Notes under the pieces: model-generated
What the model was told of the DNA's origin: nothing
Databases searched by the model: none
Seen by the model: the letters and a program-made list of their open reading frames with translations, nothing else
DNA from: a virus
Lineage: Duplodnaviria; Heunggongvirae; Uroviricota; Caudoviricetes
Length of the DNA: 10,682 nt
Strand: one strand, 5' to 3'
Virus record (IMG/VR): IMGVR_UViG_2541047502_000022
Location: 1-10,682 of that record
Position numbers and translations under genes: made by a program
In this document: positions 2,047 through 10,682 of the stretch, one piece after another
How positions within the stretch are numbered: the first letter of the stretch is position 1
Layout of the letters: the number at the start of each line of letters is the position of its first letter

Positions 2047-2192
2047 TCACGCTGGCGGCACACAGCCGCCACACATCAATCATCTGAACACAGAGCTATA
2101 ACCATGAAGATTGAATATACGCCAGAACGTGGGCGGGGATTCGTTCGCCCTGGTGAGACTGGAAAACCACAAAATTGGGGTTTTTCAGGCAT

Positions 2193-2226
2193 AAAAAAAG
2201 CGGCCCCGAAATGGAGCCGCCTTTCT
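2193..2226 (-). terminator. Intrinsic terminator for the minus-strand RHH operon
   Basis: On the minus strand, GCGGC (2220-2216), an 11-nt loop, GCCGC (2204-2200), then seven U (2199-2193). The stem can extend by G-U and A-U pairs. Confidence 0.45.
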
Positions 2227-2315
2227 GAACAGATAACCCGCTGCGCCTTATGTGTATATGATCCCAAACATAAGCACGGGGATGATAGCCGCTATCAGGC
2301 TGGTGGGCAATGCTA

Positions 2316-2504
2316 TCAGTCTGGTTCAGTTCGTTGCCATACCTGCAATGGGCGCGTTTCCCTGTACTCTTTAAGGAATTGCTCAAGGGCAAAAGCACAT
2401 GGCGCGAATCTTTCTGATTCATGCTCTATCTTTCTGCGCCGTCTTTTCCGTGCCGGTGATAATGTTTTGGTCAATTCTTTATCGGTCATTGTGTTGTCCT
2501 GCAT
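2316..2504 (-). CDS. Hypothetical small basic protein, second gene of the minus-strand RHH operon
   Basis: 62-aa ORF in the same frame and strand as the RHH gene, starting 43 nt after its stop and lying before the minus-strand terminator. Contains a basic patch RKRRRRK. Weak RBS; alternative start at the internal Met (2489). Confidence 0.25.
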   Translation of the reverse strand: MQDNTMTDKELTKTLSPARKRRRRKIEHESERFAPCAFALEQFLKEYRETRPLQVWQRTEPD

Positions 2505-2546
2505 AGCAATGCGCCGTAATACCTCACACCACGGCGCTGATAGTTT

Positions 2547-2720
2547 TTATCCTTTGGGTTCTATGCCGCGTTGCTGTAATTCTTTGCGGAGAACGCGTTT
2601 AATCCAAGTGGCTAAAGATGTGTCGCCATCGGCCTTAGCAGCTTCTTCTAGCTGCGCTCTGAAGTCTTCCGGTAATCGCATTTGGTATGGAGGCGAACGT
2701 TTTTCTAATGGTGTTGACAT
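2547..2720 (-). CDS. Ribbon-helix-helix (Arc/CopG-type) DNA-binding protein, candidate repressor of the island
   Basis: 57-aa ORF found by hand translation of the minus strand: MSTPLEKRSPPYQMRLPEDFRAQLEEAAKADGDTSLATWIKRVLRKELQQRGIEPKG. The MRLPEDFRAQLEEAAKADG...S..A.I motif is the hallmark beta-strand plus helix A of Arc-like RHH proteins. Divergent from the plus-strand operon, with palindromic sites over its own start. Confidence 0.7.
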   Translation of the reverse strand: MSTPLEKRSPPYQMRLPEDFRAQLEEAAKADGDTSLATWIKRVLRKELQQRGIEPKG

Positions 2721-2762
2721 GGTAATTACCCTTTATTGCTATACCTACATGGTAATTACCAT
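2717..2762. promoter_or_regulatory. Paired palindromic operator candidates (ACATGGTAATTACC x2, core GGTAATTACC)
   Basis: The 14-bp direct repeat occurs at 2717-2730 and 2747-2760, each with the perfect 10-bp palindrome GGTAATTACC; the second extends to a perfect 14-bp palindrome ATGGTAATTACCAT (2749-2762). Centres are 30 bp apart. The first overlaps the RHH start codon and RBS. Confidence 0.5.
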
Positions 2763-2787
2763 TGTACTTGCCATTACACAAAAATCA

Positions 2788-2821
2788 ACGCCCCGCAGTG
2801 CTGGGAACACATACGGGGCGT
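2788..2821. other. 8-bp perfect stem hairpin (ACGCCCCG / CGGGGCGT) with 18-nt loop in the divergent control region
   Basis: Arms at 2788-2795 and 2814-2821 are exact reverse complements. On the minus strand it is followed by TGATTTTTG, so it may insulate the RHH promoter from upstream minus-strand transcription. Confidence 0.35.
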
Positions 2822-2850
2822 CTAACCAACAACGTAAACTAGGAGCCGTT

Positions 2851-3048
2851 ATGGTTGCCGTAAATCATATACCACACCTTGTACACACACAAACGGCCTT
2901 TGTGTGGCGTTTTCTGGCACTGAGTGCCGGAGAATCTCAAATCATCCACGTAACCGCCTGGACGGAACGCGAAGCGCGTAACCGTTGCCCGTCCGGTTGT
3001 GTTGCTGTATTTGCCGCCCGTATTCGTCAGGAGGTGCGCCATGATTAA
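2851..3048 (+). CDS. Icd-like small protein (putative host cell division inhibitor family), first gene of the plus-strand operon
   Basis: 65 aa; ATG 2851 preceded by AGGAG (2841-2845). The motif FVWRFLAL...TEREAR...VFAARI matches my recollection of the Icd-like family common in P4-like islands; assignment is from memory and unverified. Its stop overlaps the next start. Confidence 0.5.
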   Translation: MVAVNHIPHLVHTQTAFVWRFLALSAGESQIIHVTAWTEREARNRCPSGCVAVFAARIRQEVRHD

Positions 3049-3938: not shown

Positions 3939-4238
3939 ATGAAACTTAAATATTCTGGCTTAACTGCCAGTGGCAACACTCACCCTAAATTTACGCGCGG
4001 TGATATTTACCGCGACCAGTACGGCGGCACGGTAATGATTAAGGGCGTGGAAGAACGGCGCGTAACCTACCGCCGTGAAGGTTACGAATATGATTGCGTG
4101 ATGCCTGTTTATCAGTTCCGGCGTGATTTTTCTCTGGTACAGACCGCGCCGCATAACGTGCCCACCAGCAACGCCAGGGCACGGGCAAACATCCAGAAGC
4201 TGAAAACCATGGTTAACGGATTCAGGGGCAAGAAATGA
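3939..4238 (+). CDS. Hypothetical protein (99 aa)
   Basis: RBS GGAGA 7 nt upstream; its stop overlaps the helicase start (ATGA). No confident motif. Confidence 0.6.
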   Translation: MKLKYSGLTASGNTHPKFTRGDIYRDQYGGTVMIKGVEERRVTYRREGYEYDCVMPVYQFRRDFSLVQTAPHNVPTSNARARANIQKLKTMVNGFRGKK

Positions 4239-5635
4239 AAAGCGCACCGAACTTAAAAAAACAGCCTTACGACAAGATGACCGAAGTCATTATTTTTGCG
4301 GGTAGTGATGCCTGGGCACATGCGAAACAGTGGCAGGAACAGGACGGGCGACTGGCTGGCGATAATGTGCCTCCCGTTGTGCTGGCTGATGATCAACTGG
4401 ATGAACTGGCAGAACTGAGAATCATCGACGAGGGGCGCTATTGTGTCCGGCTGTACAAGGCAGGCCACATCAGGCCATCAAATATTAATGCCATTGCGCA
4501 CAAGCTGGCGGCGGCGGGTGTAACTGATGCGAATTATTACCCCGAAGGGATGCACAGCCATATGCGGGAGAACTGGCGCGAATACCTGGAACGGGTGCGC
4601 GGGAAAGAGCCGGCGGAAGAAAAAAACCACCAGCGAAAAACCACGCTACCGATGAGCGTTGGATCTACCGGATACGACACGCAACTGGATTACGTGGTTA
4701 AGGGGATTATTCCGGCGGTATCGCTATGCAGCATATACGGGGCTAGCGGGTCCTATAAATCATTCCTTGCCGGATCGTGGGCGTGCCATGTTGCCACTGG
4801 TCGCCAGTGGGGAGGCCGCAGGGTTGCACATGGTGCGGTTCTCTATGTGGTTGGTGAAGGCGGTATAGGTGTTCCGCGTCGTGTAAAAGCCTGGGAGGTT
4901 GTGCACGATGAGCAGGTGAAAAATCTGTATCTGGTAAACCGCCCCATCTTTCCGGCTGCCCCGCTTGATGTTGATGAAATGGTTATCGCTGCCCGTCAGG
5001 TGGAGCGGGAAACGGGTAAACCTGTACGCATGATTATTCTGGATACGCTGGCGCGTTGCTTTGGTGGGAATGATGAAAATGATTCCCGTGATATGGGGGC
5101 GTTTATCCGTGGTTGTGACGAACTGAAACGACGCACAGGGGCCACGGTGCTGGTGGTTCACCATTCCGGCAAGGATGAGACGAAAGGCGCGCGCGGTTCC
5201 AGTGCATTTCGTGCTTCGCTGGATGCTGAATACCGGATACGCAGGGAGGACGCAGGAAGCGAAGCGCTGGTTATCTCATGCACCAAAATGAAGGACGCGG
5301 AGGAACTCAAAGAAGCCGCATATGACTTACGCGTGGTGGAGCTTTTTACCGACGCTGACGGTGAATTAATCACGTTGCTGGTGGTGGTGGATGATCCGCG
5401 CCCTCCTGTTGAACTGGAGCGCATCGAGGAGGCAGGGAACAAGACGGAAAACCATACCGCGCTATGGGGGTGCATCCGTTCACGCACACAGAACGGCGAC
5501 AAGTGCACGATCCCGCTGTTACGTGATGACATGAAAAAGCTGGGGTATGAAATGAAAAACTTCCGGCGCTGGCTGTACAAGCTGGAAAAAGATGGGGTTA
5601 TTCGTATCGATGGGGATGATGTAGCGCCGCTATAA
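4235..5635 (+). CDS. Replicative helicase-like ATPase (RepA / AAA_25 RecA-fold family), candidate island replication initiator
   Basis: 466 aa. P-loop YGASGSYKSFLAGSWACHVATG (Walker A), hydrophobic stretch plus Asp MIILDTLARCF (Walker B), and VVHHSGKD, typical of RepA-like hexameric helicases. The N-terminal ~140 aa are uncharacterised. An iteron cluster follows immediately. Confidence 0.8.
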   Translation: MKSAPNLKKQPYDKMTEVIIFAGSDAWAHAKQWQEQDGRLAGDNVPPVVLADDQLDELAELRIIDEGRYCVRLYKAGHIRPSNINAIAHKLAAAGVTDANYYPEGMHSHMRENWREYLERVRGKEPAEEKNHQRKTTLPMSVGSTGYDTQLDYVVKGIIPAVSLCSIYGASGSYKSFLAGSWACHVATGRQWGGRRVAHGAVLYVVGEGGIGVPRRVKAWEVVHDEQVKNLYLVNRPIFPAAPLDVDEMVIAARQVERETGKPVRMIILDTLARCFGGNDENDSRDMGAFIRGCDELKRRTGATVLVVHHSGKDETKGARGSSAFRASLDAEYRIRREDAGSEALVISCTKMKDAEELKEAAYDLRVVELFTDADGELITLLVVVDDPRPPVELERIEEAGNKTENHTALWGCIRSRTQNGDKCTIPLLRDDMKKLGYEMKNFRRWLYKLEKDGVIRIDGDDVAPL

Positions 5636-6504: not shown

Positions 6505-6777
6505 ATGGTACATGACCGCATAGCGGAGGAACTGGAGGCGAAAGGCTTTTACCGGAGGGCGGCGGCGCGATGGGGTGAAGTCATGCAGCTGGTGGAGACA
6601 GACAAGGAACGGCATCACATCACGATGCGACGGCTGGAATGTTCAAGGAAGGCACAGAGGGCACCGGAGCCGCCGGATAATTTCGGAGACCTGAAAAAGG
6701 CAGTCGATCGCACTTATGCCGAAATGGGTATAGATGGTGCTGGTGATGAAATATGGCGCAATTACCAGGACAGCTAA
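6505..6777 (+). CDS. PerC-like transcriptional regulator (putative)
   Basis: ORF 6385-6777; likely start ATG 6505 with RBS GAGGGGG. The N-terminal motif AEELEAKGFYRRAAARWGEVM resembles the PerC/Pch family as I recall it; unverified. Confidence 0.55.
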   Translation: MVHDRIAEELEAKGFYRRAAARWGEVMQLVETDKERHHITMRRLECSRKAQRAPEPPDNFGDLKKAVDRTYAEMGIDGAGDEIWRNYQDS

Positions 6778-7379: not shown

Positions 7380-7586
7380 ATGGCTGAAGAGAAAAAAAGC
7401 GGTGTTTCGGTGTACATAAGCCCCGAAATCGTGGAGGTGCTCAAGCAGCGCCACAAAAAAAACTATGAAGCTGGCGTTGCGGCTGGACTGGATCCGCTGA
7501 TGACGCCGGAGCCGTCGATAGGTTCACTTGTACGCTCTTATTTACTTGCGGCGCTTGGGATGCATAAAAATTATGGGGGTGAATAA
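7380..7586 (+). CDS. Hypothetical small protein (68 aa), possibly RHH-like, first gene of the capsid operon
   Basis: ATG 7380 with RBS AAGAGGA (7363-7369); ORF-track start 7347 lies inside the operator palindrome. GVSVYISPEIVEVLKQRHKK suggests a beta-strand followed by a helix. Its stop overlaps the capsid gene start (TAATG). Confidence 0.55.
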   Translation: MAEEKKSGVSVYISPEIVEVLKQRHKKNYEAGVAAGLDPLMTPEPSIGSLVRSYLLAALGMHKNYGGE

Positions 7587-8641
7587 TGGCAGGCAAAGCA
7601 ACGGCACTTAACACTAACCAGCTTTTCATGTACCTGAATCGCGGGGATATTGCGGATTTTAAATTCAGCCCTCTGTTTACCACGCTGTTTTTCCCGAACG
7701 TGGCGACATTCAGCACGCAAAACATCATGCTGGATACCCTGGACATTGAAGAAGTCACCATGTCGGCGTTTTGTTCGCCTATGGTGGGTAGCCAGGTTCA
7801 GCGCGATAAAGGGTACGAAACCAGCACAATCAAACCTGGCTACATGAAGCCAAAGCACGAAATCGATCCAACGAAAACCATCATGCGCATGGCTGGAGAA
7901 GATCCGGCACAGCTTAACGACCCTACCTATCGCCGTATGCGCCTGATTACTGGCAACATGCGCCGCCAGATAAACGCCATTAAGGCACGCGTGGAATGGC
8001 TGGCGGTGAATGCGGTAACGACCGGAAAAAACATCATTGAGGGCGAAGGCATAGAACGCTATGAAATCGACTGGAAAATACCGGAAAACTGCATCATAGA
8101 GCAGGCCAAGGGTAAAAAATGGTCCGAGCAGGATAAAGACATGCACGACCCAATCTATGACATCGAGCTTTATGCTGATCAGGCTGGTTGCCCCGCAAAC
8201 GTCATGATTATGGGCGCTGAGGTATGGCGCACATTACGCAGCTTTAAAAAATTCCGTGAGCTGTACGATCTTTCCCGTGGTTCAGAATCCGCCGCCGAAC
8301 TGGCCTGTAAAAACCTGGGCGAAGTGGTGAGCTTTAAAGGCTATCTTGGTGATCTGGCCCTTATCGTCTATTCCGGCAAATACACTGACAGCGATGGTAC
8401 CGAAAAATATTTCCTTGAGCCTGATTTGCTGGTCCTGGGTAACACCAACAATAAAGGGCTGGTGGCCTATGGTGCGATAATGGATCAGGAAGCGGTAAGA
8501 ACGGGCGCAACACAAAACATGTTTTACCCGAAAAACTGGATTGAGGACGGCGATCCGGCGATTGAGTACGTGCAGACACACAGTGCACCGCAGCCGGTAC
8601 CGGCAGATATTCGCAAATTTGTTACCGTCAAAATTGGTTAA
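7586..8641 (+). CDS. Major capsid protein, lambda gpE-like
   Basis: 351 aa. Shared with remembered lambda gpE (341 aa): PGYMKPKHE, YRRMRLI, SFKKFRELYDLSRGSESAAELACKNLGEVVSFKGYLGDLALIVYSGKY, VLGNTN, YPKNWIEDGDPA and the C-terminal VTVKI. RBS GGGGTG upstream. Confidence 0.9.
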   Translation: MAGKATALNTNQLFMYLNRGDIADFKFSPLFTTLFFPNVATFSTQNIMLDTLDIEEVTMSAFCSPMVGSQVQRDKGYETSTIKPGYMKPKHEIDPTKTIMRMAGEDPAQLNDPTYRRMRLITGNMRRQINAIKARVEWLAVNAVTTGKNIIEGEGIERYEIDWKIPENCIIEQAKGKKWSEQDKDMHDPIYDIELYADQAGCPANVMIMGAEVWRTLRSFKKFRELYDLSRGSESAAELACKNLGEVVSFKGYLGDLALIVYSGKYTDSDGTEKYFLEPDLLVLGNTNNKGLVAYGAIMDQEAVRTGATQNMFYPKNWIEDGDPAIEYVQTHSAPQPVPADIRKFVTVKIG

Positions 8642-8653
8642 CGGGGGGATTCT

Positions 8654-8989
8654 ATGGACACTCCATACATTGAGTTATTTGCAGGCAGTCAGCAGGTATC
8701 CACGACGTTGGTACATTTTGCCGCTGATGCTGGCGTTATTCAGGAATTTACCCCGCTGATGCTGGCAGACAATGGCGAGTTTAAGCCGTGGGATGGTCAG
8801 GAATCTGGCAAGGCTGTTTATCTGACCTCGTACCCTGTGGACACGTCAAAGCAGAAATCAGCACAGTGTTACAAGACGGGGATATTCAATATTGCCGCCG
8901 TTAACTGGCCTGAGAGCGTCGACACCGATGCGAAAAAATGCGCCGCCTTTGCGGGTTCCGGCGTATCCGTTCAGCCGCTGGCCCGATAA
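8654..8989 (+). CDS. Head decoration protein, lambda gpD-like
   Basis: 111 aa. Shared with remembered lambda gpD (110 aa): TPLMLA, WDG, YKTGIF, WPE, AAFAGSG. RBS GGGGGG upstream. Confidence 0.85.
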   Translation: MDTPYIELFAGSQQVSTTLVHFAADAGVIQEFTPLMLADNGEFKPWDGQESGKAVYLTSYPVDTSKQKSAQCYKTGIFNIAAVNWPESVDTDAKKCAAFAGSGVSVQPLAR

Positions 8990-9001: not shown

Positions 9002-9415
9002 ATGGCAACGAATGAAAGCATCATGACGCTACCGCTGGCGAGTAAATTTAAAGTCGAAGCGCGGGCAATGGCTGACAGAGGTTTATCAACCTATGAGGCC
9101 GTATATCAACTAAACAAACTGGAAGAGCAGGACAAGCCGTGCGCTGATGCGATTATGGCGCTTCATGAGCATAAAGACTATCAGCCGCTGTTGCGTGCAA
9201 TGGCAAACGTGCCTTGTATCGATGTTGGTACGGCTAAAAGCATCCTTAGCATGACCATAGAGCAGGAACGTCCGAAGGTTGCGCCGGAACTTACCGCAGC
9301 CTTTGAAAACTTTATGGACATGCACAGCCCGCAAGCCGTATCAGCTGGCATGGCATACGATGGCAGAAACCAGGGCGATGACGGCGACATCGATCGCATA
9401 CTGAAAACCATCTGA
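9002..9415 (+). CDS. Hypothetical protein (137 aa) between the decoration gene and cos
   Basis: RBS AGGGGGAA upstream, followed by a terminator. No motif recognised. Confidence 0.65.
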   Translation: MATNESIMTLPLASKFKVEARAMADRGLSTYEAVYQLNKLEEQDKPCADAIMALHEHKDYQPLLRAMANVPCIDVGTAKSILSMTIEQERPKVAPELTAAFENFMDMHSPQAVSAGMAYDGRNQGDDGDIDRILKTI

Positions 9416-9419
9416 GACA

Positions 9420-9443
9420 AGGCCGGAGAAATCCGGCTTTTTT
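9420..9443 (+). terminator. Rho-independent terminator, third copy of the GCCGGAGAAATCCGGC hairpin
   Basis: GGCCGGA, GAAA loop, TCCGGC, then six T. The 16-mer at 9422-9437 is identical to that at 6785-6800. Confidence 0.7.
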
Positions 9444-9620
9444 ACGGGTCCTTCCTGGAATTATGGCCCGTTACGGGGCGGCGACCTCGCGGATTTTCGC
9501 TATTTATGAGCCTTTTCAGGGTGGTGGTGGTGGTTTTGTTGTTTGATCTATCTTTATGAATGAAAAGGGAAAGATGCAAGCAATACACCAACCTGAAGCA
9601 GTAATTAAGTTGGTGTATTA
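9444..9620 (+). other. Lambda-type cos site (cosQ-like, cosN, divergent cosB)
   Basis: 9444-9500 reads ACGGGTCCTT...GTTACG GGGCGGCGACCT CGCGGATTTTCGCTATTTATGAG. The 12-mer at 9476-9487 is identical to the lambda cohesive end as I remember it, and both flanks are near-identical to the lambda right end and left end. Downstream (9500-9620) diverges from lambda cosB and carries a (GGT)4 run (9519-9533) and an 11-bp inverted repeat AATACACCAAC / GTTGGTGTATT (9584-9594 / 9609-9619) abutting the Nu1-like start. Confidence 0.75.
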
Positions 9621-10163
9621 ATGAAATCTCATCTGATGAACAAAAAAAACATGGCGAAAAGCTGCCGTGTAAGTGCGACAGCGTTCGACAAGTGGGGAGT
9701 AACTCCCGTTGAGCGTAAAGGCCGTGAGGCGTTTTATGATGTTGCCAGCGTGATAGAAAATAGGGTTAACAATGCAATTAGCCAGCTTATAAACGACAAA
9801 GGCGAGATTGACGATGATGAACTTTTACGAGTCAGGATCAGATTACTGACAGCACAGGCAGAGGCGCAGGAACTTAAAAACGATCGCGATCGCGGTGACG
9901 TGATTGATACTGAGTTTTGCCTGTACGCGCTTTCAAAGCTGGCGAGTCAGATTTCATCAATCATGGACAGCCTCCCGCTTACTATGCAAAGGAGCTTCCC
10001 ACAGATTACCCCCGCCATGCTGGACAGGCTTAAAAGGGAAGTGGTTAAAGCCTGTAATGCCAGTGCCAGAGTTGCCGACAACCTCCCACAGATACTGGCT
10101 GATTACTTGAAAGAAACAACCGGAAACGTACCGGAAAAGTTGCTACAGAAGAAAGGCGAGTAA
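9621..10163 (+). CDS. Terminase small subunit, lambda Nu1-like
   Basis: 180 aa. The C-terminal two-thirds align with remembered lambda Nu1 (LTAQAEAQELKNDRDRGDVIDTEFCLYALSKLASQISSIMDSLPLTMQRSFPQI...LKREVVKACN versus lambda RLTRAQADAQELKNARDSAEVVETAFCTFVLSRIAGEIASILDGLPLSVQRRFPEL...LKRDIIKAMN). The N-terminal DNA-binding region is divergent. Alternative start ATG 9636. No terminase large-subunit gene follows. Confidence 0.85.
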   Translation: MKSHLMNKKNMAKSCRVSATAFDKWGVTPVERKGREAFYDVASVIENRVNNAISQLINDKGEIDDDELLRVRIRLLTAQAEAQELKNDRDRGDVIDTEFCLYALSKLASQISSIMDSLPLTMQRSFPQITPAMLDRLKREVVKACNASARVADNLPQILADYLKETTGNVPEKLLQKKGE

Positions 10164-10191
10164 CAGACGCGCAATTATTGAACAAAAATGA

Positions 10192-10253
10192 GAAAGGATC
10201 TGATAATGGCATTTTCTGGCTAAAATGCCTCGTGTCAGATCCTTTCTTTTTTT
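10192..10253 (+). terminator. Compound stem-loop with U-tract after the Nu1-like gene
   Basis: Outer stem GAAAGGATCTGA (10192-10203) with TCAGATCCTTTC (10235-10246), enclosing inner hairpin GGCATTTT / AAAATGCC (10208-10215 / 10222-10229), then seven T (10247-10253). Confidence 0.6.
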
Positions 10254-10272: not shown

Positions 10273-10682
10273 GTAAGCGTACAGCGAGGGCCGTATTGAC
10301 GGGGATGTGTTATTCAGCTGGCAGTGCTATGCGCCACGGAAGCAGTTCGCTGACCCGGTTGACCGGCCAGTCTGCTATGACGCCAAGCACATGGCGAAGG
10401 TAGCTTTCTGGATCCACGTCATTCAGTTTGCACGTCCCGATCAGGCTGTACAGTAGCGCTCCCCGCTCACCACCATGATCAGAGCCGAAGAACAGGAAGT
10501 TTTTACGACCCAGACTGACCGCCCGCAGGGCATTTTCAGCGATGTTGTTGTCGATTTCCACCCAGCCATCGTTCGCATAGTACGTCAGTGCCGGCCACTG
10601 GTTAAGTGCGTACGCGAACGCCTTCGCCAACTCTGAGTGTCGCGACAGGGTCTTCATCTTTTCACGCAACCAGCTTTCCAGG
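10273..10682 (-). mobile_element. IS66-family insertion sequence, partial (one end plus transposase 3' region), continues beyond the window
   Basis: GTAAGCG at 10273-10279 resembles IS66-family termini, and the adjacent minus-strand ORF encodes an IS66 TnpC C-terminus. The element runs off the window edge. Confidence 0.65.
10310..10682 (-). CDS. IS66-family transposase, C-terminal part (5' end lies outside the window)
   Basis: The translation [75 protein letters not shown] matches the conserved IS66 TnpC C-terminus. The reading frame stays open to the window edge upstream of the ORF-track Met at 10669. Confidence 0.8.

Follow-up and report, generated by a model that had tools for sequence, protein, structure and literature searches.

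A full-length small terminase and a non-lambda cosB beside a lambda-type cosN: a candidate private packaging pair in a chromosomal island of Escherichia coli O157:H7

We analysed a stretch of 10,682 nucleotides (hereafter the window), which is filed as the virus record IMGVR_UViG_2541047502_000022 and assigned there to the Caudoviricetes. The window is a phage-inducible chromosomal island (PICI) of the EcCIRM12579 type from Escherichia coli O157:H7, located between roxA/ycfD and phoQ. In this island, a lambda-like cos site is followed by terS, which encodes a small terminase subunit of the Nu1 family (TerS; 180 aa; 9621..10163, plus strand). Genes for a large terminase subunit (TerL), a portal, a tail or lysis were not found in the island. 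The full-length TerS and a satellite-type cosB thus stand next to a cosN of the helper type, and we consider it fairly probable that they act as a private pair, in which the C-terminus of TerS recruits the TerL of a helper phage. The island would then probably divert the packaging motor of the helper to itself, by a route that is undescribed for this class of islands.

The cos site and the small terminase

We numbered the cos region with bp 1 at position 9476, the start of the cohesive end. The cohesive-end 12-mer of cosN, GGGCGGCGACCT (9476..9487, plus strand; bp 1-12), agrees with lambda at 12/12 positions, as the preliminary description of this DNA had stated, and is also found in the resident lambdoid prophages of O157:H7. 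The right flank (9488..9509, plus strand; bp 13-34) agrees at 21/22 positions, so that bp 1-34 (9476-9509) are identical to lambda at 33/34 positions with a G to A change at 9493 as the sole difference. The CGCTATTTATGA part of this flank is conserved in all the related satellites described below. Both flanks had been called almost identical to lambda, which is true of the right side only. Left of the 12-mer, 25/35 positions are identical: the cosQ block and the TTACG beside the 12-mer are exact, and about 16 nt between them have diverged. The cosQ heptamer GGGTCCT (9446..9452, plus strand) begins 30 nt before the cohesive-end start, as in lambda, and exists in all eight satellites and in the phages compared. 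In its cosQ spacing and in its cosN 12-mer with conserved flanks, the site is lambda-like, and no second cos site was found in the island. In a BLAST search against 50,697 phage records, the similarity to lambdoid phages is confined to approximately 9440-9520.

From bp 35 onward, the resemblance to lambda cosB ends. Neither a lambda-type R sequence nor a match to the consensus for integration host factor (IHF) was found there, which bears out the earlier proposal that the R and IHF region of lambda is missing here; what occupies its place, however, appears to be homologous to another known cosB, as described in the next section. The GGT run, previously read as four triplets, is (GGT)5 (9520-9534; chance expectation, 0.03 per window). 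Most of this run is taken in by a block at the R3 position, TGGTGGTGGTGGTTTTGTTGTT (9522..9543, plus strand; bp 47-68), which is 20/22 identical, in the same register, to that of the Kosakonia satellite and is conserved in all eight satellites with the consensus TGGTGGTGGTG(G/T)T(T)TGTTGTT. We propose that the island TerS binds mainly at this block. A TATC...TGA sequence (9549..9559, plus strand; bp 74-84) is conserved in satellites where lambda has its I1. Further on lies an inverted R-like element (9581..9593, minus strand; bp 106-118), which reads CAATACACCAACC on the plus strand and GGTTGGTGTATTG as its reverse complement. In satellites, bp 106-118 keep a fixed distance from cosN with the consensus AATACACC(A/C)AC and one substitution in the locus L084. 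This element aligns with AAATACAACAACC of the Monarch-like phage L007, which is the R2 equivalent of that phage in that it is an inverted copy of its R3. We therefore propose bp 106-118 as the putative R2 equivalent of the island.

A perfect 11-bp inverted repeat beside the start codon had been noted before, and it is indeed present (9582-9592 and 9609-9619, ending one base before the ATG at 9621). The window contains three further perfect 11-nt inverted repeats, so this repeat alone is unremarkable. Its left arm, however, is conserved and aligned with the R2 of L007, and thus represents the conserved R2-like element. The right arm, GTTGGTGTATT (9609..9619, plus strand), overlaps the ribosome-binding region of terS, where GGTG precedes the ATG by 5 nt. 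A perfect right arm is seen only in the O157 lineage; the other E. coli variants retain 8-9 of 11 positions, with no compensating change. In Kosakonia, Superficieibacter and Enterobacter it is absent, and a plain GAGG ribosome-binding site is found there. The right arm may serve as an R1-like element, as part of an RNA hairpin that covers the ribosome-binding site, or as both. We rejected the idea that the inverted repeat forms a palindrome, in RNA or DNA, that is conserved across the whole family, since its right arm decays elsewhere without compensation.

We then investigated the TerS protein. It was correctly recognised as a Nu1 homologue at the outset: PF07471 matches with 82.6 bits (cut-off, 30) and phrog_57 with E = 8e-53 over residues 1-174. 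The protein comprises a putative winged-helix domain of the N15 type for DNA binding (residues ~6-50), a helical domain in the centre (72-130), a C-terminal region (131-166) and a 14-residue tail. Its identity to lambda Nu1 is 38% in the DNA-binding domain (6-50), 19% in the linker (51-71), 54% in the central domain and 31% in residues 131-166, the region mapped to gpA binding. The claim that the C-terminal, gpA-interacting part is the conserved one is therefore reversed: this region, rather than the DNA-binding domain, is the less lambda-like of the two, and it is the central domain that resembles lambda. The N-terminal part does diverge from lambda, as had been said, but it is no orphan, being 58-62% identical to the TerS proteins of N15 and of Trabulsiella and E. 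albertii phages. Its recognition helix is TAFDKWGV in the island and QAFDKWGV in the N15-type phages. A profile built from satellite sequences only gave lambda TerS 1-98 (6HN7_B) as its best PDB match (E = 0.008). A PDB search with the single island TerS sequence returned only noise, with no match to the Nu1 domain or to Rpp, the packaging protein of the sibling island EcCICFT073.

Among the E. coli variants, the ratio of non-synonymous to synonymous substitution rates (dN/dS) lies in the range 0.09-0.28 for each of the three parts (DNA-binding, central and C-terminal), indicating purifying selection. In the alignment of the satellite, lambda and N15 TerS sequences, three residues (K138, P156 and Y162) are invariant and a fourth, A144, is almost so. 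When the window is compared with the L083/L085 alleles, the C-terminal part shows about fivefold the synonymous divergence of the DNA-binding domain, which indicates a mosaic ancestry of terS.

Satellite relatives, N15-type phages and helper pairs

Relatives of the island TerS with 76-100% identity are numerous in E. coli, and those with 54-59% identity are found in Enterobacter, Citrobacter, Kosakonia and Superficieibacter. In the loci examined, a TerS with at least 54% identity is always encoded in the order replication gene, gpE-like gene, gpD-like gene, small open reading frame (ORF), cos and terS, with no TerL. The 70-odd relatives with 50% identity or less all have a TerL gene overlapping the end of terS, as phages do. 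The clade of the island TerS is thus satellite-specific.

For the cosB comparison, eight satellites were aligned by their distance from cosN. They hold five different cosN 12-mers (GGGCGGCGACCT, GGGCGGCAGACG, GGGCGGCAGACT, GGGCGTCGACCT and GGGCGTCAGCGT), and the cosB blocks are kept in all eight, in exact register in seven and shifted by 1 bp in L084. In L084 (E. coli PM4-5), the cos-terS module has the orientation opposite to that of the capsid genes, and the R3-position block with its 1-bp deletion reads GGGGGGGTGGTGGTTTTG. From these alignments, the island cosB is best understood as a variant of the N15/Monarch-type cosB, homologous to it and not an unrelated replacement. The N15-type phages carry GGTTGTTGTTT at the R3 position, where the satellites have G instead of T at bp 54 and 57 in a register-matched comparison in which N15 itself is offset by 1 bp. 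R3 of N15 was experimentally mapped to bp 48-59/60 (PMC4669245, PMC9026076). On the protein side, V17, T20 and A42 (window numbering) exist in 8/8 satellites, and the corresponding residues are I, Q and K/R in 11/11 N15-type phages. T20 is the first residue of the recognition helix and is equivalent to R17 of lambda. The fixed T to G changes at bp 54 and 57 are thus paralleled by fixed Q to T, I to V and K/R to A changes. Such a pattern would be expected of a shifted DNA-binding specificity, although it is not proof of one.

Two satellites were found together with their putative helpers. In Kosakonia, the prophage L072 and the satellite L005 residing in its capsid gene share cosQ and a variant 12-mer, GGGCGGCAGACT, which differs from the lambda 12-mer at three positions. 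Both R3 (GTCGTTTCCGTTCTTCTTC) and Nu1 of the prophage are of the lambda type, and the satellite has the (GGT)n block and an N15-like TerS. In E. coli L26, the portal gene of a prophage harbours a satellite, which encodes a TerS with 84% identity to that of the window. The TerS of this prophage is lambda Nu1, the N-terminus of its gpA is identical to lambda at 178/178 residues, and its cosB is a complete lambda R3-I1-R2-R1 array. Both this satellite and its prophage carry the lambda 12-mer. The two embedded pairs are consistent with a model in which cosN follows the helper and in which cosB and the DNA-binding domain of TerS do not. More broadly, relatives were observed in Kosakonia (L072 and L005), Enterobacter (L080/L081), Cedecea (L079) and E. 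coli L26 (L085 and L087) inside lambda-like prophages, where they interrupt either gene E for the major capsid protein (as in Kosakonia and Enterobacter) or the portal gene (as in E. coli L26), and their insertion within prophage late genes indicates that these are helper-embedded satellites.

The resident lambdoid prophages of O157:H7, which are candidate helpers, have the same cosQ, 12-mer and bp 13-34 as the island and other types of cosB. In one of them, L086, the R sites and the DNA-binding domain are of the phage-21 type, and the C-terminus and TerL are of the lambda type. Another, L088, shows repeats of the CATGTCCGG type, a DNA-binding domain that is unrelated, and a C-terminus and TerL that we call type 2. 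Residues 131-166 of the window TerS are 42% identical to the TerS of the O157 type-2 prophage and 31% identical to that of lambda. The reverse is found in the L26 satellite, where the C-terminal region is 44% identical to lambda and 33% to type 2. The TerS of the Superficieibacter satellite has a lambda-like C-terminal half, with identities of 81% and 64% in two segments. From the reciprocal identities, the helper-facing end of the satellite TerS seems to track the terminase type of the helper.

Packaging model, alternatives and known systems

The proposed mechanism divides the cos region into two parts. The cosQ, cosN and first 34 bp would be the helper-compatible part. Since they match the lambdoid prophages of the same host, a gpA-type TerL of a helper could nick at 9476/9487 and also terminate packaging there. 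From bp 35, the satellite cosB, consisting of the R3-position block (bp 47-68) and the inverted R-like block (bp 106-118), would take the place of the helper cosB, and in the O157 lineage a putative third R-like copy would overlap the ribosome-binding site of terS. The island TerS would bind this cosB by its N15-like winged-helix domain with the satellite-specific V17, T20 and A42, and its C-terminal region would recruit the helper TerL. Concatemers of the island would then be cut, possibly at the expense of the helper, and packaged into helper capsids, in which four 11.2-kb units would amount to ~45 kb. Because the satellite has no TerL of its own, its TerS must work with a foreign one. The preliminary description had already suggested that the island TerS steers the helper TerL. 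The satellite-only clade and the helper pairs with a shared cosN agree with this suggestion, but the cosB is of N15 descent, and we infer the steering itself from sequence comparison.

Several observations weigh against this model. The region of TerS mapped to TerL binding is only 31-44% identical to that of any candidate helper TerS. Lambda and phage 21 discriminate between TerL partners through the C-terminal region of TerS, and cross-binding of the island TerS to a helper TerL is therefore not assured. The reciprocal C-terminal identities described above rest on differences of 4 residues in 36. The central oligomerisation domain is the part most like helper TerS (51-59%), which fits mixed oligomers equally well. 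An AlphaFold2 model from 17 satellite sequences was too poor for a test of the fold (mean pLDDT, 55; pTM, 0.34). On the DNA side, the IHF consensus WATCAANNNNTTR with up to one mismatch has no match in 9488-9620 and hence none between the R-like blocks; over the whole window, its matches are below chance. N15 likewise lacks I1 (PMC9026076). The promoter scan gave no sigma-70 promoter-like site upstream of terS. The register of the R3-position block is also ambiguous, because the (GGT)n run (bp 45-59) and the GTTGTTGTT core (bp 60-68) overlap two possible registers. The latter core could be the true contact site, about one helical turn away from the N15 position. In addition, N15 TerS packages lambda DNA as well (PMC4669245), and an N15-like domain need not be strictly private.

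The main competing explanation is that the island TerS does not bind TerL but forms mixed dimers or oligomers with the helper TerS, which would bring the TerL. In that case, contact would be made through the dimer interface of the DNA-binding domain or through the central domain, the island TerS would provide the specificity for the island cosB, and subunits of the helper TerS would be drawn away from phage DNA. The sibling island EcCICFT073 acts in this way with Rpp at the same chromosomal locus, where Rpp heterodimerises with phage TerS (PMC6739421), and Murialdo and Feiss argued that TerS is the bridge to TerL there (PMC9026076). This explanation agrees with the helper-like central domain and with an extreme C-terminus that has low identity to the candidate helpers, and the DNA-binding domain of RppA belongs to the same PHROG as the island TerS. 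However, all the satellites retain the full C-terminal region, unlike Rpp, with dN/dS values of 0.11-0.24, and it holds residues that are invariant across the phage TerS proteins aligned. Its alleles track the terminase type of the helper, with one satellite having a lambda-like C-terminal half, and no sequence similarity to the dimerisation domain of Rpp was detected. We thus regard mixed oligomers as an unlikely basis for the packaging of this island. The simpler idea that the island TerS is a long Rpp was rejected, as BLASTP against RppA gave E = 3.4 and tblastn of RppA against the window gave nothing below E = 1.

A second competing explanation concerns one element only and is compatible with the private-pair model. 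It holds that the 11-bp inverted repeat is not an R2/R1 pair but an mRNA hairpin that hides the ribosome-binding site of terS and controls its translation. As RNA, the repeat folds with -17.1 kcal/mol (z = -3.3), and 0/200 shuffled sequences were as stable; the only Shine-Dalgarno-like sequence, GGTG, sits in the right arm. Against this stand the decay of the right arm outside the O157 lineage and its loss from three genera, as well as the left arm, whose DNA sequence is conserved at a constant spacing from cosN and corresponds to the inverted R2 in a Monarch-like phage. We consider a purely RNA-level role doubtful, though slightly less so than mixed oligomers. Finally, cos and terS could be an inert remnant of a degraded lambdoid or N15-like prophage, with the (GGT)5 run and the inverted repeat being incidental. 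It is true that the island carries further head genes of phage origin and that deleting these from EcCICFT073 produced no measured effect (PMC6092414). Perfect inverted repeats of 11 nt are no rarity in the window, and in this copy an IS66 fragment lies just downstream of the module. Nevertheless, the TerL-less cos-terS module recurs in at least five genera with varied integrases, replication proteins (a RepA helicase or a primase) and insertion sites. It is intact in 761/5,426 complete E. coli genomes, including the O157:H7 lineage, when counted as present at 80% query coverage or more. Its terS is under purifying selection, and the register of its cosB is kept while cosN varies with the helper. 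On this distribution and selection we rejected the remnant explanation, which we regard as very improbable.

The closest known counterpart is cos1 with RppA in EcCICFT073, which shares the att site (ycfD/roxA-phoQ) and the gene order with the island and is nearly identical in DNA up to bp 34, including the hairpin upstream of cos. In both islands, cosQ and cosN are conserved, cosB is foreign, and a packaging gene lies directly downstream of cos. However, EcCICFT073 has the 144-aa rppA where the island has the 180-aa terS, and their products share no BLASTP similarity. The island TerS matches the TerS PHROG over the entire profile, and RppA does so only in the portion that corresponds to the DNA-binding domain. 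No Rpp homologue (139-154 aa, with DNA-binding and coiled-coil dimerisation domains) was found beside cos by tblastn of RppA against the window. Within its cosB, EcCICFT073 has ACCACCACC at bp 55-63, a reverse complement of the triplet, where the island has (GGT)5. Murialdo and Feiss proposed bp 55-63 as "R3-PICI" and argued that phage TerS is needed because Rpp is without a TerL-binding end (PMC9026076). We observed that ACCACCACC of EcCICFT073 (L003) is the reverse complement of the island (GGT)n run at nearly the same position and that TTGAT.TAT.TTTA..ATG downstream is also alike; the two islands may have one ancestral element in opposite orientations. The second site, cos2 of EcCICFT073 (L003, minus strand), carries CATGTCCGG / AACCGGACATG repeats that are also present in cosB of L088, the type-2 prophage of O157:H7; cos2 is thus a plain copy of a phage cos including the phage cosB.

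Compared with N15 and Monarch, the island has a similar DNA-binding domain (58-62% identity) with the helix xAFDKWGV and a triplet-periodic element in the same R3 position, and it shares with the Monarch-like phages an inverted R2-like element about 50 bp further on. It differs from them by the fixed T to G changes in the R elements and the fixed Q to T, I to V and K/R to A changes in the domain, by the absence of TerL after terS, by the divergent C-terminal region with its 14-residue tail, and by the lambda cosN 12-mer. The packaging specificity of lambda is a classic system, and the pair of lambda and phage 21 follows the same logic as proposed here: cosQ and cosN are identical, and cosB and the TerS DNA-binding domain differ. 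O157:H7 itself has a 21-type prophage with the same cosN. Unlike in lambda and 21, the third specificity here belongs to a satellite without its own TerL. In the pathogenicity islands of Staphylococcus aureus (SaPIs), a satellite small terminase also redirects the helper TerL (doi 10.1101/2022.09.08.507074), but the SaPIs use headful (pac) packaging and a separate Ppi that blocks phage TerS, whereas the island, judging from its sequence, is of the cos type, its nicking site being shared with the helper. Neither a Ppi nor an Rpp homologue was found in the island. Helper-embedded PICIs have been reported (PMC10111431), and relatives of the island module are embedded likewise, although the window island is not. 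The published 11capE was described as being without terS (PMC10111431), whereas the embedded relatives found here carry a Nu1-type terS.

For EcCICFT073, it was already published that a cos PICI combines conserved cosQ and cosN sequences with a foreign cosB (PMC6739421, PMC9026076). The 2018 catalogue marks terS homologues in some Gram-negative PICIs (PMC6092414), and SatelliteFinder treats terS as a core PICI component (PMC10085698). Our full-text literature search found no description of a cos PICI that has a TerS of the lambda/N15 family together with a cosB of its own derived from N15, and this strategy is absent from the satellite packaging strategies in the preprint on capsid-forming PICIs (doi 10.1101/2022.09.08.507074). 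Tentatively, and with rather more doubt than for the private pair as such, the module might be a third, undescribed route for cos satellites. In such a route, a private TerS/R-site pair would have shifted from N15 (Q to T; T to G), its C-terminus would have been swapped or tuned to the TerL type of the helper, and cosN would follow the helper; the Rpp-type and TerS-type siblings might use one ancestral element.

How TerS positions TerL at cosN is a question that Murialdo and Feiss raised because of the Rpp islands (PMC9026076). The island and EcCICFT073 offer a natural experiment, with a common backbone, cosQ and cosN, and with a complete TerS in one and a TerS mimic in the other. The mimic needs phage TerS; the complete TerS of the island may not. 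If the third route is real, the satellites contain a natural set of orthogonal TerS/cosB pairs, and it could be tested directly which subunit of TerS anchors TerL at cosN. Orthogonal cos/TerS pairs could serve in cosmid and phage-delivery engineering. As the island also carries a PerC-family gene, its mobilisation by resident prophages, including those associated with Shiga toxin (Stx), bears on the spread of virulence-related genes.

The host island and its other features

The island occurs at 100% identity to the window in many O157:H7 genomes, at roxA (ycfD)-phoQ, with the att core GGACATATTT on both sides of 11,210 bp. The 2018 PICI catalogue lists two islands at the ycfD/roxA-phoQ site, EcCICFT073 and the 11.2-kb EcCIRM12579 of O55:H7 (PMC6092414). 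The RM12579 island encodes a TerS identical to that of the window (WP_000835281.1, named "terminase small subunit" in RefSeq), so the island itself is already catalogued. Induction and transfer by a helper phage are known only for the sibling EcCICFT073 (PMC6092414). Like other Gram-negative PICIs, the island has an integrase, AlpA, a replication module, genes in one direction, a size in the ~10-15 kb class and its own att site. The genes are arranged as integrase, AlpA, Icd-like genes, RepA-type helicase, SSB and PerC-family regulator, followed by the head genes and then by cos and terS.

The partial head module comprises a gene for a gpE-like major capsid protein (7586-8641), one for a gpD-like decoration protein (8654-8989) and a 137-aa ORF (9002-9415; phrog_1999), and neither a portal nor a protease gene was found beside it. 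The 137-aa ORF has a weaker match to the C-terminal portion of the head maturation protease family phrog_53, at the position of the nested scaffold Nu3 of lambda. With only the gpE-like and gpD-like genes, this possibly scaffold-like ORF and no TerL found, the island differs from the capsid-forming PICIs, which have a TerL, portal, protease, head-tail connectors and HNH of their own. Deletion of the EcCICFT073 homologues of the gpE-like and gpD-like genes did not restore lambda plaque formation (PMC6092414). A GCCGGA-GAAA-TCCGGC hairpin followed by T6 (9422..9443, plus strand) marks the end of this capsid-gene operon and is identical in EcCICFT073, although it is absent from the output of our consensus terminator scan. 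On the other side, a terminator-like inverted repeat with 19-nt arms and a T-run (10185..10253, plus strand) looks to close the cos-terS module.

The other genes of the island gave several minor observations. An Icd-like gene at 2104-3048 is flagged as incomplete (a pseudogene) in RefSeq, and the 314-aa ORF listed mechanically over the same positions is probably not a real gene. The RepA-type helicase (AAA_25; 4235-5635) matches the primase of EcCICFT073 (L003, 5742-7496) only in its first 125 residues, with 62% identity; the replication gene is thus a mosaic whose N-terminal domain is common with that primase. The PerC-family regulator is encoded at 6505-6777, and in L086 and L088, two prophages of O157:H7, PerC homologues likewise adjoin cos. 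The LEE virulence locus is switched on by some of the PerC homologues that islands encode (PMC6092414). In place of the last gene region of the island, the window has a fragment of an IS66-family (ISEc8-like) transposase gene (10273-10682, minus strand). Most O157:H7 genomes match the window only to 10272 and then continue with a 93-aa gene (phrog_1561).

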